Part shown: one piece after another, positions 44,122 to 62,924 of the stretch
Position numbering within the stretch: the stretch's first letter is position 1
Layout: every line of letters begins with the position of its first letter
Origin: Candidatus Latescibacterota bacterium
Lineage (GTDB): Bacteria; Latescibacterota; UBA2968; UBA8231
DNA: 64,000 bases
Direction: 5' to 3'
Assembly (NCBI GenBank): GCA_965242865.1
Contig: CBDETK010000013.1
Location: 3,104,001 to 3,168,000 of the forward strand
The notes under the pieces: generated by a model
What the model was told of the DNA's origin: nothing
What the model saw: only the letters and a program-made list of their open reading frames with translations
Database searches by the model: none
Translations under genes and position numbers: made by a program

Positions 44122-45177
44122 ATGTCCATCATCCCCACGCGCCCTTTGCGCACCGGCGTCGAGCTAAGCACCCTCGGCTTTGGCGGCGCGCCTTTGGGCG
44201 AGCTTTTCGATCCGGTCAGCGAAACCCAAGCTCAAGCCACCCTGCAAGCGGCTTGGGACGCCGGCATCCGCTACTACGACACCGCCCCGTTTTACGGCTA
44301 TGGCAAAAGCGAGCACCGCCTCGGCCACTTTCTCCGCCAGCAAGAGCGCGGCGACTTTGTGCTCTCGACCAAGGTCGGCCGGGTGCTCACCGCCACCCGC
44401 GACCTCAATGCTTTTGAGCAAGGCTTCTGGCTCGGCGGCCTGCCCTTTGACTTCCGCTTCGACTACGGGTACGACGGCATCATGCGCTCGTGGGAAGACA
44501 GCTTGCAGCGGCTGAGCCTCAGCTCCATTGACCTGCTGTTGATCCACGACCTCGACAGCTTCTTCCACGACAGCGAGCAACGCTTCTCCGCCCATCTCAA
44601 CCGCCTGATCACCAGCGGCTGGCGCGCCCTCGACGAGCTGCGCTCCCAAGGGCTGATCAAGGCCGTCGGCGCCGGGATCAACCGCATGGGGGCCATGCCG
44701 CGCCTGCTCGACGGGGTGGATCTGGACTTCTGCATCGTCGCCATGCCCTACACGCTCTTGGACCAAGCCTCCCTCGACGAGGAATTTCCGCTCTGCGCGG
44801 AGCGCGACGTGCGCATCGTCATCGGCGCGGTGTTCGCTTCCGGCATCCTCGCCTCCGGCCCGGTCGAGGGCGCTCGCTACGCGTACGACACGGCCTCGCC
44901 GGCAATCCTCGCAAAGACTCGCCGCATCCAAGCCGTCTGCGAGCGGCACGACGTGCCCTTGCCGGCCGCGGCCATGCAGTTCCCGCTCGGGCACCCCCTC
45001 GTCTCGGCCATCATCCCCGGCGCGCTCGTCCCAGCGCACATCGAGACCAACGCCGAGTGGTTTAAGCACCCCATACCCACCGATCTGTGGGCCGAGCTAA
45101 AGGCCGAAGGATTGGTGCGGGCAGACGCTCCGACGCCGTGCGGGAATGAGAATGACGAGGTTAAAAATGGCCCCTGA
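44122..45177 (+). CDS. Aldo/keto reductase (D-threo-aldose dehydrogenase-like)
   Basis: LGFGGAPLG, YYDTAPFYGYGKSE, LSTKVGR, SLQRL..IDLLLIHD. Confidence 0.9.
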   Translation: MSIIPTRPLRTGVELSTLGFGGAPLGELFDPVSETQAQATLQAAWDAGIRYYDTAPFYGYGKSEHRLGHFLRQQERGDFVLSTKVGRVLTATRDLNAFEQGFWLGGLPFDFRFDYGYDGIMRSWEDSLQRLSLSSIDLLLIHDLDSFFHDSEQRFSAHLNRLITSGWRALDELRSQGLIKAVGAGINRMGAMPRLLDGVDLDFCIVAMPYTLLDQASLDEEFPLCAERDVRIVIGAVFASGILASGPVEGARYAYDTASPAILAKTRRIQAVCERHDVPLPAAAMQFPLGHPLVSAIIPGALVPAHIETNAEWFKHPIPTDLWAELKAEGLVRADAPTPCGNENDEVKNGP

Positions 45178-48100
45178 GCCTCCCAAAAAGAAGGTGTTTG
45201 ATCACATCCTCGGCGAACACTACACGGTCTTTGACGGGCTGGGCGGGATGCACGTGGAAGACATCTACCAAGACCGCAACGGTCTGCTCTGGATCGCCAC
45301 GGCCGACGGCGGCGTGAGTCGGTTCGACGGAGCGAACTTCGACACCTTTGGCCTGTCGAACGGGATGCCCCATCTCACGGTAATGACGATTGCCGAGGAC
45401 CAAGACGGGCGTCTGCTCTTCGGCACGCTGGGCGGCGGGCTGGCCATCTATGACGGGCAGGAGCTTCAGGTGCATACCACCGAGCACGGGCTGCCGTCCA
45501 ACGAGATTTTGAGCCTGCAACCCCAAGCCGATGGCTCGCTGCGGATGCTGACCGGCGCCGGGCTAGCCCAGTTCGCCGAGGGTAAGTGCGTGGAGCACAT
45601 GCCGGAAGTTGCGGGTCGGCCGCTCGGAGCGGTGTACGACATGGCGACCGACGCGGCCGGCACGACGTGGTTGGCGACGCGGGAGCGAGGGGTTATCAGC
45701 CTAGAGGGCCGCTCCCTGAGCGGAGACATGGGAAACAACTCGATTCAGTGGCCTTGGAAATTTGCCCAAGGCCCCTCCGGCCCGCTTTGGATCGCCTTTC
45801 ACCACACCGGCCCCGAACCCCTCGTAGGCCGCTACGATCCAAGCAGCCAACAACTCGAACTCATCGAGGTAGAAGACCACGCCGAGGGGGCCGAGGCCGT
45901 CCAGCACGGCACGCGGCACGTGCGCGTCGATGATAGAGGCTTGCTGTGGATGACCCGCCGGGGCGTCCTAGTGTACGACGGACAGGCTTGGCATCCCTTC
46001 TCCACCCAGTCGTCGGATAGCCACTTTTCGGATACGCGGCTGACGTACGAGGACCGCGAGGGGAACATCTGGTTGGGGCTGTGGGGCGGCGGGCTGGTTT
46101 TTTGCGATCCGCTCAGCGTCCAGCTATACACCCAAGCCGATGGCCTGCCCGACAGCGAGGTCCAGTGTCTGGGCGAAGATCGCGAAGGTCGGCTGTGGGT
46201 CGGTACGATGGGCGGCCTAGCCTGCCGCCAAGGCGACCGGATTCGCCCCGTAGGGCCAGAGCGGACGGTCTCAGCGCTGGTGGTAGATCGACAGGGGCAG
46301 GTCTGGAGCGGCGGGTCCGAAGGACAGGTCCTCAAGGCGACGGGCGGAGACGCCGAGGCGATTGAGGTGGCCGCGACGGTCCACACTGGAGAAGTCACCG
46401 GGCTGTGGGAAGACCGAGCAGGCCGCCTAAACGTCTGCACCGCCGAGGGGCGATTGGGGCGGATTGAACGAGATCGCTTTACGGCACTGGCACTAAAGGA
46501 GCAGTTTCCCCGCGATTGCACCGTCGCGCTGCAGGATGGAGCAGGCACCCTCTGGCTCGGCCTCAGCCGGAAAAAGGCCGCTATATGCTATTGCGAGGAC
46601 GGCCGTTTCCACACGCCTGCTGCGGCCGGCGTGGAAGACATCGCGGATGTGCGTGCTTTGTGCGAGTACCAAGGCGCACTCTGGATCGGGACGGAGAACC
46701 AGGGCCTGTTCGCCTTAGACTACGCTTCCGGGGCGATCCGCCGGTTTACGGTGGATCAGGGGGTGCTGTCCGTCAATGGGATCTCGGCTCTGATGAACGA
46801 TCCCCAAGGCAGCTTGTGGATTGGGACCAGCGGCGGGGGCGTACTGAGGTACGACGGCCAGAACTTCCATACCATTCGGCTGGGACAGGGCGCGTTGGAA
46901 AACATCGTCGAGGCCGTTGTGCGCGATAGCCGGGGCCGGCTGTGGTTTGGGACGCGCGCGGGTCTCATTGCGTATCGGCCCGGGGAGACGCGGCCGCGCA
47001 TCCTGCTGCGCCAAGTCGTGGCCGGGCAGACTTGGGACAAACCGCAAGCCGTGTCCTGCCCAGACAGCACGCCCGAGATTCAGTTTCACTTCCAAGGCAT
47101 CAGTTTCAGGAGCGGGGCCGGCCAGATGCGCTACAGCCACCGGCTCGTCGGCCACGGCCCGGCCGAAGAGTGGAGCGCCTTCTCGCCCGCCAACGAGGCG
47201 ACGTACCAAAACGTGCCGGCCGGCCAGTTCCACTTTGAGGTGCGGACCATGGATCGGGATGGCTTGGTGTCGGACATCGCCCGCCTAACGGTGCAAGTGG
47301 TCCCCACCCAATCTCGGCACCTAGAGCAAATGCTGCGGGCCGCACATCAGGGGTTTATCAGCCAAAGTCCGGCCATCGCCGAGCTTCTCGGTAAGCTCGA
47401 CTTAATAGCCGAGACGAATATGGCGGTGCTGGTGTTGGGCGAGACCGGGGTCGGCAAGGGGGTGTTGGCGCGGTTTATCCACCACCTTAGTCCGCGCCGA
47501 GCGAAGCCCTTTATATATGTCAACTGCGGGAACCTGCCCGCCGGGCTGGTAGAAAGCGAACTGTTCGGCCACGAGAAGGGGGCCTTTACCAGCGCCCATG
47601 CCCAAAGAATCGGCTACTTTGAACGAGCGAATGGCGGAACCTTGTTCCTCGACGAAGTGGGCGATTTACGCTTCGAGTCCCAACGGGTCTTGCTCCACAT
47701 CTTGGAGGAGAAACACCTGACGCGCGTCGGCGGCGGGAAGGAGATCCCGGTCGATGTGCGGATCGTTGCTGCGACCAACAGGGACCTAAAAGAGGACATT
47801 CGGGCGGGAACGTTCCGGGGGGATCTGCTCCATCGGCTGAACGAATTCTCAGCCGAACTGCCGCCCCTGCGGGAGCGTCGGGAGGATATCTCGCTCTTGG
47901 CGGTGCATTTTGCGAAAGAGTGGGCCCAAGAGGAAAGGCGGTCGGTGCCGCCTCTAAGCGACGAAGTGCTCGCGCACTTGGAGGGATATCCTTGGCCGGG
48001 GAACGTGCGTGAATTGGAGCATGTGATCAAGCAGGTGATGGTACTGAGCCGTGGGGATGTCATTCAGGTGGAGGATCTGCCGCAGCCAGCGGCCCTCTCT

Positions 48101-48358
48101 GTTGAACAAGGGGCTAACGAGGAGGCTAAAAAGGAGGCTAACGAGGAGGCTAACGAGGAGGCTAAAAAGTGGCAAACTTTCGACGCGGATGCGAGAGATG
48201 AAGCTGAAAAGCAGCGAATTTTGGCGGCTCTCCAAACCACGAACTGGCGGGTTGATGGACCGCGGGGGGCGGCTCGGTTATTGAACATGAGCGCGGAGAA
48301 GCTGCGCTACCGCATGCGCAAGCACGGATTGAAACGACCCAAGAAGTCGTCGAAGTAA
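45146..48358 (+). CDS. Sigma54-dependent activator fused to two-component-regulator beta-propeller (Reg_prop) and Y_Y_Y domains
   Basis: Repeats of D..G.LW(I/F)GT..G, YSHRL.G...W...Y.N.PAG.F.FEVR (Y_Y_Y), GETGVGKG, ESELFGHEKGAFTSA, LFLDEVG, WPGNVREL, Fis-type HTH. The start may be ATG 45167. Confidence 0.9.
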   Translation: MRMTRLKMAPEPPKKKVFDHILGEHYTVFDGLGGMHVEDIYQDRNGLLWIATADGGVSRFDGANFDTFGLSNGMPHLTVMTIAEDQDGRLLFGTLGGGLAIYDGQELQVHTTEHGLPSNEILSLQPQADGSLRMLTGAGLAQFAEGKCVEHMPEVAGRPLGAVYDMATDAAGTTWLATRERGVISLEGRSLSGDMGNNSIQWPWKFAQGPSGPLWIAFHHTGPEPLVGRYDPSSQQLELIEVEDHAEGAEAVQHGTRHVRVDDRGLLWMTRRGVLVYDGQAWHPFSTQSSDSHFSDTRLTYEDREGNIWLGLWGGGLVFCDPLSVQLYTQADGLPDSEVQCLGEDREGRLWVGTMGGLACRQGDRIRPVGPERTVSALVVDRQGQVWSGGSEGQVLKATGGDAEAIEVAATVHTGEVTGLWEDRAGRLNVCTAEGRLGRIERDRFTALALKEQFPRDCTVALQDGAGTLWLGLSRKKAAICYCEDGRFHTPAAAGVEDIADVRALCEYQGALWIGTENQGLFALDYASGAIRRFTVDQGVLSVNGISALMNDPQGSLWIGTSGGGVLRYDGQNFHTIRLGQGALENIVEAVVRDSRGRLWFGTRAGLIAYRPGETRPRILLRQVVAGQTWDKPQAVSCPDSTPEIQFHFQGISFRSGAGQMRYSHRLVGHGPAEEWSAFSPANEATYQNVPAGQFHFEVRTMDRDGLVSDIARLTVQVVPTQSRHLEQMLRAAHQGFISQSPAIAELLGKLDLIAETNMAVLVLGETGVGKGVLARFIHHLSPRRAKPFIYVNCGNLPAGLVESELFGHEKGAFTSAHAQRIGYFERANGGTLFLDEVGDLRFESQRVLLHILEEKHLTRVGGGKEIPVDVRIVAATNRDLKEDIRAGTFRGDLLHRLNEFSAELPPLRERREDISLLAVHFAKEWAQEERRSVPPLSDEVLAHLEGYPWPGNVRELEHVIKQVMVLSRGDVIQVEDLPQPAALSVEQGANEEAKKEANEEANEEAKKWQTFDADARDEAEKQRILAALQTTNWRVDGPRGAARLLNMSAEKLRYRMRKHGLKRPKKSSK
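48111..48169 (+). repeat. In-frame 12-nt tandem repeat in AAA-HTH linker
   Basis: GAGGCTAACGAG / GAGGCTAAAAAG units encoding ANEEAKKEANEEANEEAKK. Confidence 0.85.
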
Positions 48359-48364
48359 GAGCCC

Positions 48365-48443
48365 GTGCGAAACTGTAAAAAGTCGTGCAAAAGCTGTGCA
48401 AAAGCCGTGCAATTCAAACGACTTTTGCACAGCTTTTGCACAG
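48365..48443. promoter_or_regulatory. Candidate upstream activator sequences (enhancer)
   Basis: GTGCAAAAGC(T/C) direct repeats at 11-bp period followed by two inverted copies (A/G)CTTTTGCAC, ~130-210 bp upstream of the sigma54 promoter. Confidence 0.65.
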
Positions 48444-48573
48444 AAAATCGCCGATCAACATGGCGGCGACGCCTCATGCCGGCCTCGTAGAAAATTATTT
48501 TTAGCTATCCAATCCCTTGTTTTTCAATCCTTTAGGTAATCCTAAAGGATTTTTTTGTGCCGGACCGGCCTCG

Positions 48574-48590
48574 TTGGCACGAAACTTGCG
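48574..48590 (+). promoter_or_regulatory. Sigma54 (-24/-12) promoter
   Basis: TTGGCACGAAACTTGCG fits TGGCAC-N5-TTGC with GG-N10-GC spacing; 45 bp before the ATG at 48636. Confidence 0.9.
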
Positions 48591-48635
48591 ATAGTCTTTG
48601 CAAGCGAAGCTCATCTACTCTGAGGCGAAACGGAT

Positions 48636-49775
48636 ATGGAAGCCCTGCTCAACGATTTTGGCCGCGTATTTTTGCTGGAGCTGATTATGGCCTGCGCCAT
48701 TACCATCTGCGGTTGCTATACAACCTATACCGATATTCACTTCCGCCACATTCCCCATTGGGCTAGTTGGGGGCTGCTGGCCGTAGGTTTAATCAGCCAA
48801 GGTCTATTTTGGATGTGGGGTGTGGTCGAACTGGACCAAGCAGGCATCGTCTTGGTGGTCGGTTTTGCCGTTGGTTACATACTCTATATCTATGGATTTT
48901 GGGCACCCGGCGACGCCAAATTGTTTTGGGCTTTTGTCTTGGTGCTGCCGCCGACGTTCTTCCCTTCCACTTCCCTCGCCTCCTTTAACGCGCCGATTTG
49001 GGCACTCCTGCTCAACGCCTTAGTGCTCACCTGTTTTGTCTTGCTGGTGCTGTGGGCGGTTTTGCGCCGAGGTCGGTCCGCAGAAGTCGAGGGGGATTGG
49101 GACGCATCGCAATGGCTGTATCTAGGCTTGGAGTTGGCCGGCCTAATAGGGATCGTGCTGGGTTTTGGCACCTTTCTGCTGGCCGAGACCATGACCTTCG
49201 TAGAGGTCGTGATCGCCATCTTGGTACTCTATCTGCTCGTTGATCACTTCGTCCCCCAGAGGTTCCGGCTGACCTTGGCCCTGCCCGGTCTTATCCTCGG
49301 CGGCTACACGGCCCTAGAATCCGGCGAATGGCTGATCTACCTAGTGTTGTGGGGCCTCTCTTGGGGGGTGTTCTCCCTCTATAAAATCATCCGGCGCCTA
49401 GTCCCTCGGTACTTCGTACAGGCGATGCCTATTCAGGCGTTGCGCGCTGGCATGGTGCCGCAGGTGGCGATCTACGCGGTGGGCGGAGCGGCGGAATACC
49501 GGTGTGGCGCAGAGGTTGGGCAAGGGCAAGACATGCTGTGTTATCCCGGCCGGCCGTTGACCAAGGGGCAGGTGCGGACACTGCACAAAAAATCGGCGGG
49601 CGGTGCTTTCGCGTCGTTTGGCCATGAGTTGGCCGTGGAACTGGCCGTCCCTTTCGCGCCGATAATCGCCGGCGCTGGGGTGCTGACCATCGTCTTGGGC
49701 GGCAGTCTGATCAGACCTCTGATCCAGTTGTTCTCTCCGTGGCTGCCGTCGCTTCAGCAGTTGTTGGCGGGGTAA
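48636..49775 (+). CDS. A24-family prepilin/preflagellin-type membrane aspartic peptidase
   Basis: YTDIHFRHIPH (first Asp), WAPGDAKL (GxGD-like second Asp), many TM helices, C-terminal VPFAPII. Confidence 0.8.
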   Translation: MEALLNDFGRVFLLELIMACAITICGCYTTYTDIHFRHIPHWASWGLLAVGLISQGLFWMWGVVELDQAGIVLVVGFAVGYILYIYGFWAPGDAKLFWAFVLVLPPTFFPSTSLASFNAPIWALLLNALVLTCFVLLVLWAVLRRGRSAEVEGDWDASQWLYLGLELAGLIGIVLGFGTFLLAETMTFVEVVIAILVLYLLVDHFVPQRFRLTLALPGLILGGYTALESGEWLIYLVLWGLSWGVFSLYKIIRRLVPRYFVQAMPIQALRAGMVPQVAIYAVGGAAEYRCGAEVGQGQDMLCYPGRPLTKGQVRTLHKKSAGGAFASFGHELAVELAVPFAPIIAGAGVLTIVLGGSLIRPLIQLFSPWLPSLQQLLAG

Positions 49776-49777
49776 TC

Positions 49778-50404
49778 ATGAATCGGGATAGAAAAGACCC
49801 TGTAACAATCGCCTTTGGCGTCCTGTTCGTCGCGTTGCTGCCAACCTTTTTCCTGTTGGTGAGCCACTACCCGTCGATAGACGAGCGCGTGCGACAGTTG
49901 CAGCAGTTGCAGCCCAAGCCCTTGGTGCCTGCGCCTTCACTGGAGGACCTGTTGGCACGAGTCAGCCAAGCCGTATCCGACAGTACGCTCCAACTCCAAC
50001 AGGTATGGGCGGCCGAGCCGGAACCGACTTCTGGCCTAGTGGCCGCCTACGCGGTCGTGCGCGGCGGTCCAGCCGTCTATCGGCTGGTGGTGTTGCGCCA
50101 CGACATCGCCTGTAGCGTCTGCCGAGACGTGTTGGCCGCGGCTCTGTACGACAGCGACGCACTGGTGCAGATCTTCCTGCTCGACGATTGGGAGGTGCGC
50201 GGCGAGCGGGTTGATACCGCGCGGTTTTTGCGCCAATTCGCCGGCCGGCCGCTGGCGACCGAACTGGTTCTTGAGGCCAATGTCGATGGGATCAGCGGGG
50301 CCACGTTTTCAACCGGGGGCCTCGTCGAACAGCTCAACACGGCGGCGGCGTGGGTGCGGACGCATCCACTGACGCCGCTGGCAAGCGAGGGAGAAAACCT
50401 GTGA
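49778..50404 (+). CDS. Membrane-anchored FMN-binding domain protein with CxxC
   Basis: N-terminal TM helix, CSVC, FLRQFAG, VDGISGATFST flavinylation motif [S/T]GA[S/T]. Confidence 0.75.
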   Translation: MNRDRKDPVTIAFGVLFVALLPTFFLLVSHYPSIDERVRQLQQLQPKPLVPAPSLEDLLARVSQAVSDSTLQLQQVWAAEPEPTSGLVAAYAVVRGGPAVYRLVVLRHDIACSVCRDVLAAALYDSDALVQIFLLDDWEVRGERVDTARFLRQFAGRPLATELVLEANVDGISGATFSTGGLVEQLNTAAAWVRTHPLTPLASEGENL

Positions 50405-50940
50405 ACCCTCTCAGACCTAATCGCTGGGCTACGACCTTGATCGGGGCTACGGGCCTTCTGTTGGGAGCCTGTGTATTCTTGGCGGCCAAGATCGTCAATC
50501 CCCCGCCCATTGATCCGCTCGATGTGGCGTTTTGGGATTTGCTGGGTACACAAGCGGCTGTCTTGGAATTAGAGGGCCTGACGGGCGCGGACGAGGTTTC
50601 CAACGCACAGTTTGCCGGCGAGCCTTACCTGCTCATTTTCGCCGACCCGACTTGCAGTGCCTGCGAGGCCATTTACCCCCACTTGCTGCGCGCCTCGCAG
50701 GTGCAGGGCGTGAATGTCCTGTTCATTGCCTCGGGCGACCGGCAGGCGATGCAAGACAAAGTGGAGGAACACAGTTTTGCGTTCCCGGTGGCCTTTGATT
50801 CCCTGTTGACGGCTAACAAGCCCTTTGAGGTGGGTGCTCTTCCCGCCTCCATACTGGTCGATGCCGAAGGCAACATTGCCAAAGCCGCTACCGGCGATCA
50901 GGGTGCTGTCGCCGTAATACGCTTGGCTGGAAGTTCCTGA
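50401..50940 (+). CDS. Membrane-anchored TlpA/MauD-like thioredoxin-fold protein
   Basis: TM helix, LLIFADPTCSAC, FEVGALP.SILVDAEG. Confidence 0.8.
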   Translation: MNPLRPNRWATTLIGATGLLLGACVFLAAKIVNPPPIDPLDVAFWDLLGTQAAVLELEGLTGADEVSNAQFAGEPYLLIFADPTCSACEAIYPHLLRASQVQGVNVLFIASGDRQAMQDKVEEHSFAFPVAFDSLLTANKPFEVGALPASILVDAEGNIAKAATGDQGAVAVIRLAGSS

Positions 50941-50955
50941 AAGGATGGATGCGCC

Positions 50956-51672
50956 ATGTACGTTGTAACTCTCTTGCGTCGTCCGGTGGTGTGGACGGTG
51001 GTAGCCAGCGCCGCGGTCGTGGTCTTTTTGGCCTTGCGTCCCTCTTCGTCGGCCCTCTCGCCGGTGGTGTGGACCGAGCCGCCGGCCAACCCGCTGGCCG
51101 AGGTGCTGCGACCGGGGGATACCGCGCCGGACTTTGCTCTGCCGGCGGTACAGGGCGGCACGGTCGCCTTGAGCGCGTTACGGGGCAAGCCCGCTCTGCT
51201 GGCCTTTGTTACGGCGGAATGTCCGTATTGTCAGAAGCTATACCAGAAACTCGAAGCCTTTGAACTGAATGCGGACCAATACCTCGTATTCATCTGCCCA
51301 AGCGAGGAGGGTGCTCGGAAAATCAGCGCGACCTATTCCTTTACGTATCCGGTGTTGATCGACTCGGCTGGGGCGATTTCACAAGCGTACAAAACCCCTG
51401 GGGTGCCTGCGGTGTATCAGATAGACCCCGAGGGGAAGGTTGTGGATTTGGCGGTGGGGTGGCCATCGGCTTGGACGTTTGTCCGGGGTTTTGGCCGCCC
51501 CCAGCCGAGCGAAAGCTCTGGAGGTCATTTGCTCAATGACTCAGTCACCATTCTGGCTCAGAAAGGAGGTGCATTCCGTGCTCGTAGGTATGATGTTCGT
51601 CAGCAACCGCACTGGTTTGCTGATCCTTTTTCCTATTCTTTTTTCTATCACTCAAGGAGAATTGAGTTATGA
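50956..51672 (+). CDS. Membrane-anchored TlpA-like thiol:disulfide oxidoreductase
   Basis: TM helix, PGDTAPDFAL, LSALRGKP, CPYC, GVP..Y.IDPEGKV. Confidence 0.85.
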   Translation: MYVVTLLRRPVVWTVVASAAVVVFLALRPSSSALSPVVWTEPPANPLAEVLRPGDTAPDFALPAVQGGTVALSALRGKPALLAFVTAECPYCQKLYQKLEAFELNADQYLVFICPSEEGARKISATYSFTYPVLIDSAGAISQAYKTPGVPAVYQIDPEGKVVDLAVGWPSAWTFVRGFGRPQPSESSGGHLLNDSVTILAQKGGAFRARRYDVRQQPHWFADPFSYSFFYHSRRIEL

Positions 51673-52016
51673 ACTTTTTGACTTTGGTCTTGCAGTCGGC
51701 GCTGGTGCTGCCGCTGGTGGCTCCGCTGGTGGAGTTCGCCACGTCGACGAGCGGCCACGTTGAGCCGCGCGAGGGCTTGGCACTGGGCTGGCTGGGCAGC
51801 GTGGTGGCGGGGCTGGCGGTGGTGTTCGGCACGGCCGAACGGACCCAGGCCGATTCCTGCTACGGAATCTCCGAAGGCTCATCCGGAACGGTCTGCCGAA
51901 CGGACCAACCGTGCATTTATGATCACAATGGAAAGCCCAGAGGGTGGTATCAGGTCACATACTACCACAACTCTGCTACAGGCTGTGAATGGCGATCGGG
52001 GTCCTGCCAGTGCTGA
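51669..52016 (+). CDS. Small exported cysteine-rich precursor peptide
   Basis: AAGGAG RBS; 61-aa leader with two hydrophobic stretches ending TQA, then a 54-aa core with six Cys ending CQC. Confidence 0.7.
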   Translation: MNFLTLVLQSALVLPLVAPLVEFATSTSGHVEPREGLALGWLGSVVAGLAVVFGTAERTQADSCYGISEGSSGTVCRTDQPCIYDHNGKPRGWYQVTYYHNSATGCEWRSGSCQC

Positions 52017-52150
52017 GCCGTACTGCCGCTGTGGCACTATCGGGCCGGGTGCCACAGCGGCAGGTCGTGTTTTGGCTATCATGTCGGTCACTCGAACAAT
52101 GGTAGGTCGTTAGACCGGCTACTACATCCACTTACTGCCTCTGGAGGTGC

Positions 52151-54259: not shown

Positions 54260-54288
54260 ACGACCTAAGTTATCACTGGAGGCAAACT

Positions 54289-56403: not shown

Positions 56404-56432
56404 ACGACCTAAGTTATCACTGGAGGCAAACT

Positions 56433-58544
56433 ATGCGCGGCTTGCTTTTTGCGATTGGATTGTTGACCGCTCCGGTTGGAGCCTTGGCCTTAACGTGGGA
56501 TTTCGACGAGGACACCACGTGGGGCTGGACCGCCCAAGAGGCGGGTTCCTACAGCACTAGGGGAACGGATGATGTCACCACGGTGTATAGCGAAGTCAAA
56601 GACGGCATTTGGCGTATTGCGCCCGTGCCGGGGGCTCGAAAACCCACCCTTCAGTTGCGCTCGCCGCCGATCGAGGAAGACTCGGCCCTGTTCGACTATG
56701 TCACTCTCCGGCTCCGCATCACCCACCGTATCCCGACGGAGGGAACGCTCGTGATGCGATGGTTCAATGCTGAGTACACGAGACGCCTCGGGCTGAACCG
56801 ATACGAAGGAGAAGGGAAGTTTTTGACGAGCCGTTTTCAACTCTATCCCACTCAATGGGAAGACATCACCATAGATATACGCGCCTTAGAAGCCGCGACG
56901 GAAGCCGACCCGGAAGTCGAGATCGTCTGGCAGGACACCCTTTTTACGTTTCTCTTTGACTTGGACCTACACACCACCGCACAGGGGCCGGCCGATCATC
57001 CGGCCTTTGTCGAAGTAGATTGGATTCAACTGACCGGGGTGGAAGAGTTACTGCTGGGGGAGTTGCCGCCTCGGGCCATCGTCGTAGAGGCGGGCTTGCC
57101 CGGCACGTTGTTCGGCGAACCGGCCTTTTTTCCTCTCGTCGAGGGCATCAAAGGCAAAGTGGCCATTGGACAATCGGCAGGTACTTTGGGGGATGTGGAT
57201 GGCGATGGCGATGGGGATCTAGTGGCGGTTTGGAATCGCCTCACTGCCACCGGAAGCGACCATGGTTGGCTCATAGCCTCCAACGATGGCTTGGGCGGCT
57301 TTGCTCCCACCCAAGAGGAGGCCGCAAGTGCCTACCTCAGTCTCCAAGGAAGCGACTTCGACGGAGATGGACTTCTCGATCTGGTCCTTGGTGAAGGCCG
57401 GACCCTTGAACTGTGGCACAACCGGGGCGAGGATGGGTTTGAGAGTACGCTGCGGCTGTCCGGCGTCGGGTTCGTTGGCCTCGCCGATGGCGAGGGCGAT
57501 GGCGATGTGGACCTGTTGGTTCATGAGCTTGACGACGAATCGTCCCACGTGATTTTGTGGATCAACGATGGCGACGCCGGATTCGTCCGCCGTGAGCGGT
57601 TCGATCTCGACCGCAAAGAAGCACTCAAGCCGTACCCGCCCTCCAAGCAACCGCCGGGCGAGGCTGTGCGCCTGTTGTGGAACCGCCCCTGCGACCTGCC
57701 CGTGGGGCCTTTGCTCCTGACCCGACCGTGGGCGGCCAGCGAGGAGCCGCCGCTGTTTTTCGAGACCGGAGTCAACCCCTGTACGCTGCACTGGATCGTT
57801 GATTTGGATGGCGATGGGGTGATGGAATTAGTCGGTTCCCTTGAGGAGAGATGGTTCTTCGGCTACACCTACCACGGCTTGGCCGTGTGGCGGTTGGACG
57901 CTTCGGGCGGGGTATCCCGCCATCTCCTGCTCGGTCCGCAGGCACACATGGCGCATGAGGCCGTTGCCCACGACCTCAACGGCGATGGCCTGCTGGACTT
58001 GGCTGTGGTCGATGGCAACTTGGCGACTGGACCGGCGTTAGTGGTGCTGACCGGCCAGCGCGATGGCCTGCCCGTCGTCGAAGGCCGCTACCGGCTGCCG
58101 GGCACGGGCGGCCAAGTGCTCCCCGGCGACGTAAACGGCGATGGGGCTGTCGATCTGGTGGTGCTGGGGCGGAATATGGAAGGCGGTCCGGGCGGAGCCT
58201 TCGTCTTCCTCAACCAGCGTACGTCGGCCACCACGGTCACTACTGAGACCGCGACTGTCCCCTCAGCCTTTGTCCTCGGGGCCAACTATCCCAACCCGTT
58301 CAATCCAGCCACGACCATCCCCTTGGCACTGCCTGCCCAAGCCAGCGAGGTGGCCTTAACCATCTACAACGTCTTGGGGCAGCCCGTGCGCCACGTGTGG
58401 GCAGGTTCGTTGGCGGCGGGCGCACACCGGCTGGCTTGGGATGGCCGGGACGCGCAGGGGCGGCCCGTCGCTGCGGGCGTCTATTGGTATCGGTTGCAGG
58501 TGGACGATCAGACGCACACCCGCAAGATGATCAAAATCGAATAG
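56433..58544 (+). CDS. Secreted FG-GAP repeat protein, copy 3
   Basis: Close paralog; GGAGG RBS before ATG 56433. Confidence 0.85.
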   Translation: MRGLLFAIGLLTAPVGALALTWDFDEDTTWGWTAQEAGSYSTRGTDDVTTVYSEVKDGIWRIAPVPGARKPTLQLRSPPIEEDSALFDYVTLRLRITHRIPTEGTLVMRWFNAEYTRRLGLNRYEGEGKFLTSRFQLYPTQWEDITIDIRALEAATEADPEVEIVWQDTLFTFLFDLDLHTTAQGPADHPAFVEVDWIQLTGVEELLLGELPPRAIVVEAGLPGTLFGEPAFFPLVEGIKGKVAIGQSAGTLGDVDGDGDGDLVAVWNRLTATGSDHGWLIASNDGLGGFAPTQEEAASAYLSLQGSDFDGDGLLDLVLGEGRTLELWHNRGEDGFESTLRLSGVGFVGLADGEGDGDVDLLVHELDDESSHVILWINDGDAGFVRRERFDLDRKEALKPYPPSKQPPGEAVRLLWNRPCDLPVGPLLLTRPWAASEEPPLFFETGVNPCTLHWIVDLDGDGVMELVGSLEERWFFGYTYHGLAVWRLDASGGVSRHLLLGPQAHMAHEAVAHDLNGDGLLDLAVVDGNLATGPALVVLTGQRDGLPVVEGRYRLPGTGGQVLPGDVNGDGAVDLVVLGRNMEGGPGGAFVFLNQRTSATTVTTETATVPSAFVLGANYPNPFNPATTIPLALPAQASEVALTIYNVLGQPVRHVWAGSLAAGAHRLAWDGRDAQGRPVAAGVYWYRLQVDDQTHTRKMIKIE

Positions 58545-58573
58545 ACGACCGCAGTTATCACTGGAGGAGACCT

Positions 58574-60718
58574 ATGCGCGGCTTGCTTTTTGCGATTGGC
58601 TTGTTGATGGCTCCGGTTGGAGCCTTGGCCCTAACGTGGGATTTCAACGAGGGCACCACGTGGGGCTGGACCGCCCAAGAGGGGGGGTTCTACACCATGG
58701 GGGGAACGTCTGATGCGACCACGGTGTACAGCGAAGTCGAAGACGGCGTCTGGCGTATTGCGCCCGTGCCGGGGGCTCAAAAACCCACCCTTCAGTTGCG
58801 CTCGCCGCCGATTGGCGAAGACTCGGCCCTGTTCGACTGGGTCACCCTCCGGCTCCGCATCATCCACCATACCCCGACCGCGGGAACTCTTCAGATGCAA
58901 TGGTTCAATTCCGAGTCCACAAGACTCCTCGGTCTGAACCAACACGCCGACCCCTACGAAGTGATGCCGTTTGCAACGGGCCGTCCTCAACTCTACCCCA
59001 CTCAATGGGAAGACATCACCATAGATATACGCACCTTAGAAGCCGCCGCGGCAGCCGACCCCGAAGTCGAGCTCATCTGGCAGGACATCCTTTTTGAGTT
59101 TCATTTTGACTTGGATATACACAGCGATGCACAAGGCCCGGCCGATCATCCGTCCTTTGTCGAAGTAGATTGGATTCAACTGACCGGGGTGGAAGAGTTG
59201 CTGCTGGGGGAATTGCCGCCCCGGGCCATCGTCGTGGAGGCGGGCGTACCCGGGGCGTTGTTCGCCGAACCGGCCTTTTTCCCCCTCGTCGAGGGCGCCA
59301 CAGACAAAACAGTGGGCCTTGGAGCATCGGCGGGTACTTTGGGCGATGTGGATGGCGATGGCGATGTGGACCTCGTGGCGGTTTGGGACCGTCCCCAACC
59401 CTTCACCACCGAAATCGACTACGGCTGGGTAATAGCCTCCAACGATGGCTTGGGCGGCTTTGTCCCCACCCAAGAGCAAAAGGCCGCCGACCAAGCCACA
59501 ACCATCAGTCTTCAAGGAAACGACTTTGACGGGGATGGGCTGTTAGACTTGGTCTTTAGTGGAGACCAGATCGTCGAACTGTGGCATAACGAGGGCGAGG
59601 ATGGGTTTGAGATCGCGCTGCGGCTGTCCGGCGTCAGGTTCGTTGGCCTAGGCGATGGTGAGGGCGATGGCGATGTGGACCTGTTGGTTCATGAGCTTGA
59701 CGACGAATCACCCCACGTGGTGTTGTGGCTCAACGATGGCGACGCCGGATTTGTCCGCAGCGATCGGTTCGATCTCGACAGCGAAGAGGAGCTCCTTCCG
59801 TACCCGACCTCCGAGCAAGCGCCGGGCGAGGCCGTTCATCTATTGTGGAACCGCCCCTGCTACCTGCCTCAAGGGCCGTGGCAACGGACCCGGCCGTGGG
59901 CGACCAGCGAGGAGCCGCCGCTGTTTTTCGAGACCGAGGTCAACCCCTGTACTCTACAACTGCTCGCCGATGTGGATGGCGATGGAGAAGTGGATTTACT
60001 CAGCGTCTCTGTGATGAGAGAGTTCTTCTTCGCCGCCACCACCTATCACGGTTTGGACTTGTGGCGGTTGGACGCTTCGGGCGGGGTGTCCCGCCACCCC
60101 CTGCTCGGCTCGCAGGTACAGGTGTCGCATCGCGCCATTGCCCACGACCTCAACGGCGATGGCCTGCTGGACTTGGCCTTGGTTGATGGCAACTTAGCCA
60201 CTGGTCCGGCGTTAGTGGTGCTGACCGGCCAGCGCGATGGGCTGCCCGTCGTCGAAGGCCGCTACCGGCTGCCGGGCACGGGCGGTCAAGTGCTCCCCGG
60301 CGACGTAAACGGCGATGGGGCAACCGATCTGGTGGTGCTGGGGCGGAATATGGCAGGCGGTCCGGGCGGAGCCTTCGTCTTCCTCAACCAGCATACGCCA
60401 GCCACCGCCATCGCCGCCGAGACCACGTCCACCCCCTCAGCCTTTGTCCTCGGGGCCAACTACCCCAACCCGTTCAATCCGGCCACGACCATCCCCTTGG
60501 CACTGCCGGCCGACGCTGGCGAGATGGCCTTAACTATCTACAACGTCTTGGGGCAGCCGGTGCGCCACGTGTGGGCAGGTTCGTTGGCGGCGGGCGAACA
60601 CCGACTGGCTTGGGATGGTCGGGACGCCGAAGGACAGCCGGTCGCCGCGGGCGTCTATTGGTATCGGTTGCAGGTGGGCGATCAGACGCGCACCCGCAAG
60701 ATGATCAAAATCGAATAG
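58574..60718 (+). CDS. Secreted FG-GAP repeat protein, copy 4
   Basis: Close paralog; GGAGG RBS before ATG 58574. Confidence 0.85.
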   Translation: MRGLLFAIGLLMAPVGALALTWDFNEGTTWGWTAQEGGFYTMGGTSDATTVYSEVEDGVWRIAPVPGAQKPTLQLRSPPIGEDSALFDWVTLRLRIIHHTPTAGTLQMQWFNSESTRLLGLNQHADPYEVMPFATGRPQLYPTQWEDITIDIRTLEAAAAADPEVELIWQDILFEFHFDLDIHSDAQGPADHPSFVEVDWIQLTGVEELLLGELPPRAIVVEAGVPGALFAEPAFFPLVEGATDKTVGLGASAGTLGDVDGDGDVDLVAVWDRPQPFTTEIDYGWVIASNDGLGGFVPTQEQKAADQATTISLQGNDFDGDGLLDLVFSGDQIVELWHNEGEDGFEIALRLSGVRFVGLGDGEGDGDVDLLVHELDDESPHVVLWLNDGDAGFVRSDRFDLDSEEELLPYPTSEQAPGEAVHLLWNRPCYLPQGPWQRTRPWATSEEPPLFFETEVNPCTLQLLADVDGDGEVDLLSVSVMREFFFAATTYHGLDLWRLDASGGVSRHPLLGSQVQVSHRAIAHDLNGDGLLDLALVDGNLATGPALVVLTGQRDGLPVVEGRYRLPGTGGQVLPGDVNGDGATDLVVLGRNMAGGPGGAFVFLNQHTPATAIAAETTSTPSAFVLGANYPNPFNPATTIPLALPADAGEMALTIYNVLGQPVRHVWAGSLAAGEHRLAWDGRDAEGQPVAAGVYWYRLQVGDQTRTRKMIKIE

Positions 60719-60788
60719 GGTGAAAGTACCACAGGAGCAGGCGACCAGAACATCCTAAAACAAATCTATCACGCTCTGGAGGTGCATT

Positions 60789-62924
60789 ATGTACGTCTTA
60801 CTCGTTGCGATTGGATTGGTGGTGGCTCCGCCTAAAGCCTTCGCGTTAACGTGGGATTTTGACGACGGCACGACTTGGGGATGGACTGCCGAAGAGAGCT
60901 TCATAGGCTCTACCACTGGTACCACCACGGTGTTCAACGAAGTCGAAGCCGGCGTCTGGCGCATTGCGCCGGTGCCGAACGGGCTAAGACCAGCCATTCG
61001 CTTGTCTTCGCCGCTGATTGGGGAAGACTCTGACCTATTTGACTGGGTCACCTTACGGCTACGCATCGTCCACGATCGCCCCACCGAGGGAAGCTTCCTG
61101 ATGATGTGGTCCAACGCCGAGTACAGACGCCTCAAGAAGGAAGGATCCCGCGAATCAATCGGGTTGGGGTTTTTTATGGGCGATTCTCACATTTATTCCA
61201 CCGAATGGCAAAACATCACCGTAGATATACGGGCCTTGGAAGCCGGTGCGGAAGCGGACCCAGAAGCAGAGATTACTTGGCAAGACACCCTCTTCCACTT
61301 CCACTTCGACCTAAGCTTATTGTCTTCAATCGCCTGGGACGAAAACAGCTTAAACAACTTAAAACCGGAGGATCGTCCGGCTTTTGTCGAAGTCGATTGG
61401 ATTCAACTGACGGGGGCCGAAGAGCTGCTACTGGGGGAACTACAGCCCCGGGCGAACACCGTGGAGGCCGGGTTGCCCGGGACGTTGTTCGCAAAACCGC
61501 GGTTTTCGGTGCTGGGTCGAGAGATCGGAGGCCCCAACGTGTATGGTACTTTGGGCGATGGCGATGGCGATGGCGATGCCGATCTGGTCGTGGGCTGGTT
61601 AATGCGAAACGCGGGCTGGACTATAGCGACCAGCGATGGCTTGGGGGGCTTGGTTCCCACCCAAGAGGTCCGCCTCCCAAAGGCGATTGTTCCGGTTATC
61701 GTGGGGGGCGATTTCAACGGCGATGGGCTGCTCGATCTGGCCCTTGATACCGGTCGAACCATCGAATTGTGGCTCAACCGGGGCGAGAATGAATTTGAGA
61801 CCATCCTACAGCTATCCGGCGGCTATCTCATCGGTCTAGCCGATGGCGACGGCGATGGCGATGGGGACCTGTTGGTGGTAGAGGACCTCGACGACCGCTG
61901 GTCTAACGTGACTATGTGGATCAATGATGGCGCGGCCGGGTTTGCCCACAGCGACCAGTTCGTCCTCGACACCGAAGAAGAGCTCGGGGTTTCCCTGCTG
62001 GCAGGGCAACCGGCGGGCGAGGCCGTGCGCCTGTTGTGGAGCCGACCCTGCTGGAAGCCGGTGGAGCGGTGGCGCCTGACCCAGCCATGGGCGGCCAGCC
62101 AGCCGCCACCGCTGTTTTTTGAGACCGGGCAGACCAATCCCTGCGACATGTACCTGCTGACCGATCTGGATGAGGATGGAGCGGTGGAGTTGATCGGGAC
62201 GCCCGAACGGAATCTGTACTTAGGCTTTTCTGTGGGCAACACCTACCACGGTTTGGCTGTGTGGCGGGTGGACGCCGCGGGCGGGGTGGAACGCCACACC
62301 CTGCTCGGTCCGCAGGTGATGGTGCCGGATGAAGAGGGGGGGGTTATTGCCCGCGACCTGACTGGCGATGGCCTGTTGGACTTGGCTGTGATCGACATCA
62401 ACATAGCGACGGGTCCGGCACTGATCGTCTTGGTTGGCCAGCGCGATGGCCTGCCCATCGTCGAAGGGCGCTATCCCCTGCCGGGCATCGGCCACAAGGT
62501 ACTAGCGGGCGATGTCAACGGCGATGGGACGACCGATCTGGTCGTGCTGGGACGGAGTCAGCGCGGCGAGGGCGGAGCCTCCGTCTTCCTCAACCAAGGC
62601 GTTCCCGCCACCGCCATCGCCGCCGAGACAACGACCACCCCCTCAGCCTTTGTCCTTGGTGCCAACTATCCCAACCCGTTCAACCCGGCCACGACTATTC
62701 CCGTGTCGGTGTCGGCGGGTGCGGGCGAGGTAGATTTAACCATCTACAATGTCTTGGGGCAGCCGGTGCGCCGCGTGTGGGCGGGTTCGTTGGCGGCGGG
62801 CGCCCACCGGCTGGCTTGGGATGGCCGGGACGCGCAAGGACAGCCGGTCGCCGCGGGCGTCTATTGGTATCGGTTGCAGGTGGACGACCAGAGGCACACC
62901 CGCAAAATGGTCAAACTTGAATAG
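60789..62924 (+). CDS. Secreted FG-GAP repeat protein, copy 5 (more divergent)
   Basis: Same architecture (LTWDFDDGTTWGWTA...NYPNPFNP), more substitutions; GGAGGTG RBS. Confidence 0.85.
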   Translation: MYVLLVAIGLVVAPPKAFALTWDFDDGTTWGWTAEESFIGSTTGTTTVFNEVEAGVWRIAPVPNGLRPAIRLSSPLIGEDSDLFDWVTLRLRIVHDRPTEGSFLMMWSNAEYRRLKKEGSRESIGLGFFMGDSHIYSTEWQNITVDIRALEAGAEADPEAEITWQDTLFHFHFDLSLLSSIAWDENSLNNLKPEDRPAFVEVDWIQLTGAEELLLGELQPRANTVEAGLPGTLFAKPRFSVLGREIGGPNVYGTLGDGDGDGDADLVVGWLMRNAGWTIATSDGLGGLVPTQEVRLPKAIVPVIVGGDFNGDGLLDLALDTGRTIELWLNRGENEFETILQLSGGYLIGLADGDGDGDGDLLVVEDLDDRWSNVTMWINDGAAGFAHSDQFVLDTEEELGVSLLAGQPAGEAVRLLWSRPCWKPVERWRLTQPWAASQPPPLFFETGQTNPCDMYLLTDLDEDGAVELIGTPERNLYLGFSVGNTYHGLAVWRVDAAGGVERHTLLGPQVMVPDEEGGVIARDLTGDGLLDLAVIDINIATGPALIVLVGQRDGLPIVEGRYPLPGIGHKVLAGDVNGDGTTDLVVLGRSQRGEGGASVFLNQGVPATAIAAETTTTPSAFVLGANYPNPFNPATTIPVSVSAGAGEVDLTIYNVLGQPVRRVWAGSLAAGAHRLAWDGRDAQGQPVAAGVYWYRLQVDDQRHTRKMVKLE

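Follow-up and report, generated by a model that had tools for sequence, protein, structure and literature searches.

A candidate sigma54-controlled pathway for leader cleavage and oxidative folding of variable Cys-rich peptides in a Candidatus Latescibacterota genome

Introduction

A24 peptidases are the signal peptidases of type IV filaments, and a propeller fold is found in the large subunit of methylamine dehydrogenase. The signal of type IV pilins and other class III substrates is described in an excerpt of PMC10191384 as a hydrophilic leader ending in Gly or Ala, followed by 20–25 hydrophobic residues and often with Glu at position +5. For redox proteins, an excerpt of PMC8238504 gives [S/T]GA[S/T] as the ApbE flavinylation motif and treats flavin, haem and thioredoxin carriers as interchangeable. 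MauE has been reported to act like DsbB, as a general disulfide-forming enzyme, in a study that names the gaps in bacterial oxidative folding as an acknowledged open question (2026 preprint). Here, we describe a locus that brings such families together in a 64-kb stretch of a Candidatus Latescibacterota genome (G000:C13:3104001-3168000; hereafter the window, that is, the whole stretch analysed, with all coordinates given on it unless a contig is named). An A24-like peptidase (A24L), an FMN-binding protein (FMNb), two thioredoxins (Trx1 and Trx2), a small Cys-rich peptide precursor (Cys115) and FG-GAP propeller proteins (FG) are encoded there downstream of a sigma54 activator. We consider that these genes, at the head of a sigma54 regulon, probably form a pathway dedicated to cleaving the leaders of variable secreted peptides and folding them oxidatively, a reading drawn from the gene content, the promoter cassettes, the conserved residues and the linkage of A24, peptide and thiol-oxidoreductase genes across lineages.

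The interval 45146–62924 is the putative first operon of a ~56-kb locus (region 1; G000:C13:3149146-3205137), and all of its listed genes lie on the + strand with short gaps or overlaps between them (Table 1). A second region (region 2; C13 367–411 kb and 489–497 kb) contains 16 FG paralogues (~32% identity), 7 peptide genes, copies of a DUF4159 gene and a second activator that shares 54% identity with the first; A24 and thioredoxin genes were not found in it. In total, the genome devotes ~100 kb to propeller paralogues, of which 31 are full-length, and to precursor genes, of which at least 11 are intact. The original prediction for this DNA had described a co-oriented, tightly packed run of a propeller-sigma54 activator, enhancer-like repeats, a -24/-12 promoter, an A24 peptidase, an FMN-binding CxxC protein, two TlpA-like thioredoxins, a 115-aa precursor with six Cys and five FG-GAP paralogues. 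Every item was recovered on the + strand as described, and the propellers were found in addition to carry sorting domains of the type IX secretion system (T9SS). Its right-hand boundary at 62924 was an artefact of the window, since the co-oriented block continues to C13:3205137, equivalent to window coordinate 101137.

Results

Cys-rich precursors share a leader and differ in their tails

Cys115 contains six Cys, all within its last 52 residues, and matched no Pfam or NCBIfam family. Alignment of 23 precursors from this and sister genomes revealed a near-invariant leader, L-x-E-F-x-x-S-x-S-G-x4-R-x-G-L-x-L-G-W, followed in all of them by a hydrophobic stretch of ~20 residues and a variable Cys-rich tail that usually ends in CxC; many family members start at a Met just before the leader. 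Within the leader, L, E, F, S, S, G, R, G, L, G and W are the same in all 23 precursors. The tails are hypervariable and 45–55 residues long. Only five Cys are invariant in the tail alignment, the other invariant column being a Gly in the helix, and none of the invariant positions is a Trp, Tyr or Lys. The tail opens with C-Y-G-I-P-x-G-x-x-G-W-V-C in the clade to which Cys115 belongs. Throughout the family, an A/V/T-x-A motif, predicted to be a signal peptidase I site, follows the hydrophobic stretch and precedes the first Cys by one to a few residues. Among 1.84 billion representatives, a profile search retrieved 98 proteins at E ≤ 1e-3, mostly of 90–115 aa. Searching the 23 precursors against Pfam at E ≤ 10 yielded scattered chance-level matches only (best 0.017), and the Flp family was unmatched even at this threshold.

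The tail of Cys115 was modelled as a three-stranded sheet (pLDDT, the per-residue confidence score, 93–96). A Foldseek search of the peptide model against the PDB gave no match at E ≤ 1e-3, and the best VIA-align Z on the Cys-rich tail among 48,161 chains was 3.5 over 42 residues, with higher rows covering N-terminal helices only; the fold search yields no fold assignment for the tail and does not show a new fold. Among the three intact copies in region 1, synonymous divergence (dS) was 0.02–0.04 in the leader and ~1.6 or more (saturated) in the tail, and the ratio of nonsynonymous to synonymous divergence (dN/dS) in the tail was 0.2–0.33 for the two pairs with estimable dS. These values indicate that the tails are coding, old and under purifying selection, and the promoter and leader ends appear to be homogenised among copies. 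Positive selection on the tails was considered and rejected, because dN/dS stays under 1 and it is in dS that leader and tail differ, pointing to homogenised 5' ends.

The intact precursor genes of this genome have unrelated tails and would be served by a single processing module. Each heads a unit of 1–5 FG-GAP genes, and the peptide or fusion gene lies directly upstream of an FG gene in 12 of 12 cases (7/7 for region 2 precursors and 5/5 for region 1 precursors or fusions). The fusions join the leader and a Cys-rich domain in frame to a T9SS sorting domain. Two are located in region 1 (C13:3189627-3190325 and 3194041-3194913; window 85627–86325 and 90041–90913), and others, of 280–344 aa, were found elsewhere (L044:7403-8434, L045:7444-8436, L042:2070-3062 and L048:8506-9345); they contain one to three Cys-rich repeats and no propeller.

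The A24-like peptidase keeps its catalytic residues

A24L matched Peptidase_A24 (PF01478) with 27.1 bits against a gathering score of 26.5 (30.7 bits in a genome-wide scan, and 29–41 bits for its homologues) and is the only A24-family match in the genome. Residues D33, R37 and G92-D93-K95 were invariant in 12 of 12 sequences comprising orthologues, paralogues at 40% identity and relatives at 26–33%, and the Asp pair was likewise invariant in a wider set of 8. No Cys or His is invariant, so A24L is not expected to be a thiol or haem electron carrier. The protein has no methyltransferase domain and carries a C-terminal extension of ~250 residues. A low-confidence AlphaFold2 model built from 12 sequences (mean pLDDT 56) suggests approximately nine helices and a small beta domain at residues 261–335; at this pLDDT the model is too poor for a fold search, and the rough helix count alone is quoted. 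The family is small (76 proteins at E ≤ 1e-5 among 5.8 billion), and its nearest relatives outside Latescibacterota include archaeal A24 proteins, one of them with PF06819.

A24L and the peptide remain linked across lineages

A protein query with A24L found matches in 16 of 41 related genomes, and the Pfam A24 model gave hits in 19 of 31 genus genomes; with a single exception, the matches in those genomes are of the A24L type. The order A24, FMNb, Trx1, Trx2, peptide, FG-GAP is kept in six sister genomes at 75–82% identity. A paralogous cassette at ~40% identity, with the order FG, FMNb, A24L, Trx1, Trx2 ... DUF4159, is present in more genomes, and cassettes at 27–37% identity occur in other Latescibacterota. 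We then considered 52 A24-like loci from two public collections, comprising 37 genome loci, most of them from Candidatus Latescibacterota, and 15 metagenome contig loci. A sequence-pattern detector placed a family peptide on the same strand and within 6 kb of the A24 gene at 30 of the 52 loci; on the present 6.0-Mb genome this detector returned 11 true and 13 false hits, the latter corresponding to ~0.01 expected per locus. Among the 22 loci without the peptide, 10 have less than 1 kb downstream, two are cut upstream, one holds only a fragment of the A24 gene and one has 1.6 kb downstream, which a cytochrome gene takes up; the remaining eight are taken up in the Discussion. Hidden Markov model searches of the 37 genome loci found thioredoxin genes with A24 in 25 and the FMN protein in 21.

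Three architectures were distinguished. Architecture A, that of this genus, comprises A24L, FMNb, Trx1 and Trx2, then the peptide with FG-GAP/T9SS arrays, and last DUF4159. Architecture B, in other Latescibacterota (L058 and L059), has the order FMNb, Trx1, Trx2, A24L, peptide, followed by two to four paralogues of a ~296-aa secreted protein (L059:11708-13628 and L058:11767-18151) that has no Pfam match and about ten weak relatives scattered in the present genome. A variant at L067 has the architecture B module with three tandem peptide genes, and L060 has A24L, Trx1, peptide and DUF4159, with no FMNb detected. Architecture C, in other bacteria (L062, L065, L079 and L083), pairs A24L with a ~645-aa protein and arrays of PD40 propellers; the ~645-aa protein combines four CxxCH haem motifs with a GILT/DsbA-like domain, and the flavin and thioredoxin genes are absent there. 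The peptide gene is present at three of these four loci (L062, L065 and L083), and at L065 the order is peptide, three PD40 genes, peptide, two PD40 genes. The thiol oxidoreductase and its cofactor thus appear to have been swapped for analogues, and the propeller for a non-homologous propeller, with A24L and the peptide staying in place. The persistence of these two through the swaps argues most strongly for a joint function of the genes.

The original prediction had suggested testing whether a small Cys-rich gene and FG-GAP genes co-occur with the A24, FMN_bind and TlpA genes across genomes. The peptide did accompany A24 at the 30 loci mentioned above, and the FG-GAP link did not extend beyond one genus, the place of FG-GAP being taken elsewhere by PD40 propellers or the ~296-aa family. 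The contrary pattern that it had named, homologous A24 and TlpA genes occurring elsewhere without the peptide, was not borne out, as adjacency to the peptide recurs across lineages.

The same comparison bears on whether the peptides could be free products, that is, disulfide-rich antimicrobial peptides of a bacteriocin- or defensin-like kind or diffusible signals, with the propellers as immunity or receptor proteins or as unrelated cargo sharing a regulator. A conserved leader, a hypervariable core and one module for many precursors follow the logic of ribosomal peptides as it is generally understood, the three tandem peptide genes of L067 would fit it, and at L058 and L059 the peptide precedes the ~296-aa family rather than a propeller. 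We nevertheless regard free peptides as unlikely: scans of the block revealed neither an exporter nor an immunity-type membrane protein, nor any outer-membrane route by which free peptide could leave, the peptide gene heads arrays of two unrelated propeller families, and fusions of the peptide to T9SS sorting domains exist.

Filament and type II secretion genes

Among the 12 open reading frames (ORFs) of the interval and its downstream neighbour, Pfam and NCBIfam scans found no pilus, type II secretion system (T2SS), cytochrome c or mau catalytic gene, as the original prediction had stated for the block; neither T2SSF nor a secretin was found among these ORFs or in the scanned downstream ORFs. 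At E ≤ 1e-20, the T2SSE ATPase was missing from 14 of the 19 A24-positive genus genomes, including complete single-contig genomes. A strong T2SSE match occurred in 1 of 31 genus genomes, namely the present one, with 457 bits on the 41-kb side contig C1. There, a complete-looking T2SS cluster (G000:C1:24000-34600; locus L077) encodes GspE, GspF, GspG, three N-methyl pseudopilins and L/M-like genes. No canonical prepilin peptidase was found anywhere in the assembly. Because none of the other 30 genus genomes has a strong GspE match, contig C1 may come from another organism.

These data are relevant to two further explanations. In the first, the precursors would be Flp-like pilins, cleaved by A24L and polymerised into a short filament or surface fibre with the Cys-rich tail as an exposed head. 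The hydrophilic Gly-ended leader with its ~20-residue helix fits the type IV pilin signal, and an A24 enzyme without a methylase domain resembles TadV, both as presented in the excerpt of PMC10191384; in addition, distant A24 relatives in the archaeal locus L069 and in L090 adjoin ordinary archaeal-type pilins. Set against this are the scarcity of the ATPase, whose sole strong match lies on the side contig, the AxA site after the helix, at which the head would be detached from its anchor, the lack of Glu at +5 and the T9SS sorting domain carried by some members. We hold a pilin identity to be improbable.

In the second, the linkage would be incidental: A24L would be the general prepilin peptidase of the T2SS, the redox genes would serve envelope thiol upkeep or cytochrome maturation, and the small ORF would not be a substrate. 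A T2SS cluster with N-methyl pseudopilins is indeed present on C1, A24L is the sole A24 match in the assembly, and TlpA/ResA-type proteins commonly serve cytochrome c maturation. Nevertheless, strong T2SSE is confined to a small side contig of one genus genome, whereas A24-like genes occur in 19 of 31, and adjacency to the peptide persists across lineages even where the redox genes are swapped, so that we give this explanation very little credence. Cytochrome c maturation as a role for the block was dropped, as it holds no cytochrome biogenesis genes.

A predicted flavin- or haem-linked set of thiol redox proteins

FMNb carries the motifs R-x-D-I-x-C-x-x-C and DGI[S/T]GAT, both invariant in 12 of 12 homologues. 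The latter fits the ApbE flavinylation motif, so that flavinylation is predicted, and the genome contains one copy of ApbE (275 bits). The score to the NCBIfam RnfG model was 20.9 bits against 205. In an atlas of protein clusters, the neighbours of FMNb were FMN_bind clusters at 0.87–0.88, which serves as a lead only, and none of the 161 proteins of the family has a precomputed Pfam domain. Both thioredoxins scored above the AhpC-TSA cut-off of 26 bits (39.3 and 66.3 bits for Trx1 and Trx2, respectively), with AhpC-TSA/Redoxin above cut-off and the ResA and MauD matches below threshold. The active site of Trx1 across 18 sequences was CDAC in 11, CRAC in four, CSAC in one, CNAC in one and absent in one (CxAC in 17/18), and that of Trx2 was CPYC in 13 of 15, the remaining two being fragments. 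The last 47 residues of Trx2 (window 51520–51672) are 66% identical to the translated non-coding stretch C13:3185368-3185496 upstream of the third peptide copy; the extra 50 residues of this protein relative to its orthologues seem to be read-through into a remnant of a duplicated peptide-gene upstream region.

Elsewhere in the genome, no DsbB or VKOR match was found. One DsbD-type protein is present, the single DsbD_TM gene lying 250 kb away from the block, together with two MauE-family genes (C13:3602988-3603371 and 1222158-1222568). A MauE pair in a genome without DsbB or VKOR fits the general disulfide-forming role that the 2026 preprint ascribes to MauE, and general oxidising power may therefore come from elsewhere in the genome.

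A propeller beside a Cys-rich protein and MauD-like thioredoxins also recalls methylamine dehydrogenase or quinohaemoprotein amine dehydrogenase, in which case the peptide would be a small subunit with a peptide-derived quinone, built by the redox genes. The parts run parallel (a propeller, a small disulfide-rich subunit, a MauD-like thioredoxin, a polytopic membrane protein and a haem or flavin protein), MauD and MauE have been tied to the small subunit (2026 preprint), and both thioredoxins match MauD (TIGR02661; E = 9e-10 and 4e-6). The bit scores of these matches are 38.3 and 26.6, as opposed to an equivalog cut-off of 188.6; no match to the MauA, MauB or MauG families was found in the block, the tail lacks the invariant Trp, Tyr or Lys noted above, and 31 T9SS-sorted propellers point to surface display instead of periplasmic catabolism. 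An amine dehydrogenase is thus a highly improbable identity for the locus.

Sigma54 activator, enhancers and promoter cassettes

At its N-terminus the activator has a Reg_prop/Y_Y_Y propeller sensor, which is followed by an AAA+ domain containing a GAFTSA loop and, at the C-terminus, by a Fis-type helix-turn-helix. Its matches to NifA, NorR and similar NCBIfam models all fell below the equivalog cut-offs. No signal peptide or transmembrane segment was found in its sequence, which argues that the propeller sensor is cytoplasmic.

The enhancer-like repeats downstream of the activator gene have 24-nt arms that are 96% complementary, and the same repeats precede two further promoters of the locus (C13:3172366 and 3185349). 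The promoter lies 47 nt before the ATG of A24L at 48636. Allowing up to two mismatches to TGGCAC-N5-TTGC gave 69 matches in the window versus 71.7 expected, no more than chance would produce, so that weight can be placed on the exact match only. The 5.6-Mb contig holds 48 exact motifs, nine of which lie inside the two gene regions. Region 1 has three identical promoters (TGGCACGAAACTTGC), one before A24L and two ~145 nt before peptide genes, and region 2 has six promoters identical to one another (TGGCACGCAATTTGC) with a different enhancer, a 22-nt direct repeat. In all nine cassettes, a perfect hairpin with a T-run stands, with small changes, between the enhancer repeats and the -24 element (the others near G000:C13 3172320, 3185300, 379700, 390140, 397960, 405640, 411080 and 493720); it may be a terminator or insulator that stops read-through from the upstream gene and so leaves each unit dependent on its own activator alone, or a DNA-bending site. 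The two activator paralogues and two enhancer types appear to be matched, one pair per region, and to control all of the propeller and precursor genes mentioned above. The genome encodes rpoN, and no strong terminator-like site was found outside coding sequence between 48636 and 62924. Sigma54 control of the locus is thus supported at the sequence level.

One further peptide gene (C13:2271170-2271445, - strand), with a leader of the region 2 type, lies far from both regions. An exact -24/-12 motif of the region 1 type occurs at 2271142, immediately after it.

Propeller arrays and type IX secretion

The five FG proteins of the window are 64–82% identical to the first, and each combines FG-GAP_3, FlgD_ig and the sorting-domain model TIGR04183, the last scoring 33.1–39.0 bits against a cut-off of 23 in 5/5. 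The listed ORFs of the second to fourth begin too early, the alignment placing their true starts ~59 codons further in, at a Sec signal peptide. Region 1 contains 15 close FG paralogues (59–84% identity), and one divergent copy without the sorting domain adds to the 31 full-length paralogues of the genome. The PorU sortase, by which the presence of T9SS machinery was judged, was found with 624 bits against a cut-off of 420. The Sec signal peptide, the TIGR04183 match and PorU together indicate that the FG proteins are T9SS cargo. They have exactly two Cys each and are therefore not an obvious thiol substrate. The DUF4159 protein, present in multiple copies at ~75–96% identity, closes four repeat units, and its gene also lies ~3 kb from the A24 gene at the distant loci L060 and L061.

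Three lines of evidence hint that peptide and propeller may be partners, namely the 12/12 gene order, the peptide-headed arrays of architecture C and the fusions of the peptide to sorting domains. We tentatively propose that the folded peptide could be a small subunit or ligand of the T9SS-exported propellers and could travel with them to the surface. Complex prediction for residues 20–610 of the first FG protein with residues 60–115 of Cys115 gave run scores of 0.06, 0.65 and 0.01, which amount to no verdict and are evidence neither way.

Extent of the locus and neighbouring genes

Region 1 is organised in eight units: (1) the activator; (2) A24L, FMNb, Trx1, Trx2, peptide, five FG genes and DUF4159; (3) two glycosyltransferases, one fused to a transglutaminase-like domain; (4) peptide and four FG genes; (5) the divergent FG protein without a sorting domain and a TPR protein; (6) peptide, FG and DUF4159; (7) a peptide-sorting-domain fusion (232 aa), FG and DUF4159; and (8) a peptide-sorting-domain fusion (290 aa), four FG genes and DUF4159. 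The two glycosyltransferase genes (C13:3168573-3172131; window 64573–68131), which separate the first and second units with a peptide gene, encode a GT1-like domain fused to the transglutaminase-like domain and a GT2 enzyme, respectively, and could act in modification of the secreted proteins.

The genes 5' of 45146 are housekeeping and defence genes unrelated to the locus. Among them, a Type ISP restriction-modification enzyme (1061 aa; window 31135–34320) and a STAND NTPase-like gene (window 20773–22479) lie in stretches of lower guanine-cytosine content and are probably defence genes. A protein with an F5/8 type C (discoidin) domain and a FlgD_ig-type C-terminal domain (window 13468–15777), unrelated to the FG-GAP family, is probably another T9SS cargo.

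Table 1. Features of the putative first operon and its surroundings, in window coordinates
Feature	Position	Strand	Description
Sigma54 activator (bacterial enhancer-binding protein, bEBP)	45146..48358	+	1070 aa; Reg_prop, Y_Y_Y, Sigma54_activat (208 bits), AAA_lid_14, HTH_8 (Pfam)
Upstream activator sequence (predicted)	48378..48443	+	AAAAG(T/C)CGTGCAA-type unit, 11-nt period; three direct and two inverted copies
Hairpin	48526..48551	+	Perfect 11-bp hairpin, then T-run; 24 nt upstream of the -24 element
Sigma54 -24/-12 promoter (predicted)	48575..48589	+	TGGCACGAAACTTGC; only exact TGGCAC-N5-TTGC in the 64-kb window
A24L, intramembrane aspartyl peptidase (predicted)	48636..49775	+	379 aa; Peptidase_A24 PF01478
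FMNb, membrane-anchored FMN-binding protein (predicted)	49778..50404	+	Listed ORF 49739–50404, 221 aa; start probably at 49778
Trx1, TlpA/ResA/MauD-like thiol:disulfide oxidoreductase	50350..50940	+	CSAC; N-terminal membrane anchor
Trx2, TlpA/ResA/MauD-like thiol:disulfide oxidoreductase	50956..51672	+	CPYC; 238 aa (orthologues 188 aa)
Cys115 precursor	51669..52016	+	115 aa; leader, one hydrophobic helix, AxA, 54-residue tail ending in CxC
FG-GAP protein 1	52151..54259	+	Sec signal peptide, ~200-aa N-terminal domain, FG-GAP propeller, T9SS type A sorting domain
FG-GAP protein 2 (T9SS cargo)	54289..56403	+	Start trimmed to signal peptide
FG-GAP protein 3 (T9SS cargo)	56433..58544	+	Start trimmed to signal peptide
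FG-GAP protein 4 (T9SS cargo)	58574..60718	+	Start trimmed to signal peptide
FG-GAP protein 5 (T9SS cargo)	60789..62924	+	Most divergent of the five, 64% identity to the first
DUF4159 protein	63025..64000 (runs off the window)	+	Membrane-anchored, Pro/Arg-rich linker; whole gene 443 aa

Discussion

The dedicated pathway that the original prediction had put forward, in which a small exported peptide is processed and oxidatively folded, is supported by the cross-lineage linkage of A24 and peptide genes. We propose that the cytoplasmic propeller of the activator would sense a cue and open at least three identical -24/-12 promoters in the locus. The precursor would enter the inner membrane through its hydrophobic segment with the leader facing the cytoplasm, where A24L would clip the leader after the glycine of S-x-S-G or that of R-x-G, and signal peptidase I would free the 45–55-residue tail into the periplasm at AxA. 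The membrane-anchored Trx1 (CxAC) and Trx2 (CPYC) would form or shuffle the two to four disulfides of the tail. A flavinylated FMNb could couple these thiols through its CxxC to a redox cofactor, taking up electrons as a sink or supplying them for isomerisation, and the cytochrome fusion may take this redox-linking place in other lineages. One module would serve at least 11 intact precursor genes that share a homogenised promoter and leader. Within this scheme, the redox direction and any contact between peptide and propeller are inferred.

Several observations weigh against the proposed pathway. The PF01478 match of A24L is borderline (27.1 versus 26.5 bits), and FMNb falls below the cut-off of the FMN_bind model (PF04205; 17.8 versus 22 bits). 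The precursors have the Gly-ended leader and hydrophobic stretch and lack Glu at +5, with AxA following the helix, which makes their signal atypical of class III; signal peptidase I alone could release the tail, and the role of the A24 protein would then be open. TlpA-type proteins are usually reductants, and the MauE pair and the DsbD-type protein could serve the thioredoxins without the flavoprotein. Eight adequately flanked loci, six archaeal and two with bacterial A24 relatives at 27–29% identity, have no family peptide, and the archaeal locus L069 has an ordinary archaeal pilin in its place. The FG-GAP link is confined to one genus. Of 38 leader hits in other genomes, only 5 have a strict -24/-12 motif in the 400 nt upstream, many of these leader genes sitting within operons. 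Finally, the source is a metagenome assembly estimated to be 93.6% complete with 6.8% contamination.

A broader reading, which we put forward as a doubtful possibility, is that of an undescribed surface system, in which a pilus-independent A24 protease and a flavin- or haem-linked thiol oxidase would make hypervariable, disulfide-knotted mini-proteins, each docking on a matching variable secreted beta-propeller. Such pairs might act as combinatorial two-part surface receptors or adhesins, for example in sponge-associated bacteria facing their host or neighbours; this, too, is speculative. Of the sampled words of the locus, 43–58% were present in runs labelled sponge metagenome. Together with the genomic investment in propellers and precursors, this makes the system a candidate for surface variation in an uncultured symbiont lineage. 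An A24 protein kept without a filament ATPase and tied to non-pilin substrates would widen the role of the A24 family, and the exchange of FMNb, with its CxxC, for a tetrahaem cytochrome/DsbA-like fusion suggests a cofactor-coupled disulfide route beside DsbB, VKOR and MauE. The proteins are all small enough for heterologous tests.

The original prediction knew of no named system with this composition, and in agreement with it we found no paper describing the gene combination in the full-text literature (subscription journals being outside this scope); the main text of a paper on sponge-associated Latescibacterota is silent on these genes. Among described systems, the Flp/Tad peptidase TadV and the archaeal FlaK/PibD share with A24L an A24 peptidase with two conserved Asp and no methylase domain. 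Flp prepilins and other class III substrates share with the precursors a hydrophilic Gly-ended leader and one hydrophobic helix, and the end of the leader, F-x-x-S-E-S-G, resembles what we take to be the end of an Flp prepilin leader. Unlike Tad and FlaK, the locus has no filament ATPase, platform or secretin alongside, and A24L has its long C-terminal extension; unlike Flp, the substrate carries an AxA site, and its Cys-rich tail is hypervariable. The mau cluster, with MauD/MauE and a small subunit of six disulfides, likewise places a TlpA/MauD-like thioredoxin and a polytopic membrane protein beside a small disulfide-rich protein and a propeller. In contrast to mau, the block has no MauA, MauB, MauG or MauE, its membrane protein is an A24 protein without conserved Cys, no cofactor-forming residue is conserved, and the propellers are T9SS cargo and number in the dozens.

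Also related are the flavinylation-associated redox clusters of Meheust et al. (2021), especially that of DsbD, ApbE, DUF3570, a thioredoxin-like protein and DUF4266, in which, according to the excerpt of PMC8238504, a flavinylated and a thioredoxin-like protein work outside the cytosol, and the interchange of carriers described there is matched here between lineages. The present block differs in having no DUF3570, DUF4266 or DsbD, a flavoprotein with its own CxxC and an A24 protein; in the main text of PMC8238504, 'prepilin' is absent and 'peptidase' appears once, in the title of a reference. Leader-guided ribosomal peptide families and bacteriocin thiol-disulfide operons, as commonly understood, resemble the locus in a near-identical leader with an unrelated core, one module for many precursors and helpers of the thioredoxin fold. 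They differ from it in that here the leader peptidase is an intramembrane A24 protein rather than a C39 or subtilisin-type enzyme, no ABC exporter accompanies it, only disulfides are indicated as a modification, and the peptides are paired with propeller arrays. The FG paralogues are like other T9SS type A cargo in their Sec signal peptide, their TIGR04183 scores above cut-off and the PorU of the genome, and unlike it in being arranged in sigma54-driven units, each headed by a peptide gene and tied to a peptidase and redox module. Overall, each known system shares one or two features with this locus and none the combination, and the locus likely represents a new kind of system built from known families, its function being read here from genes and their arrangement.

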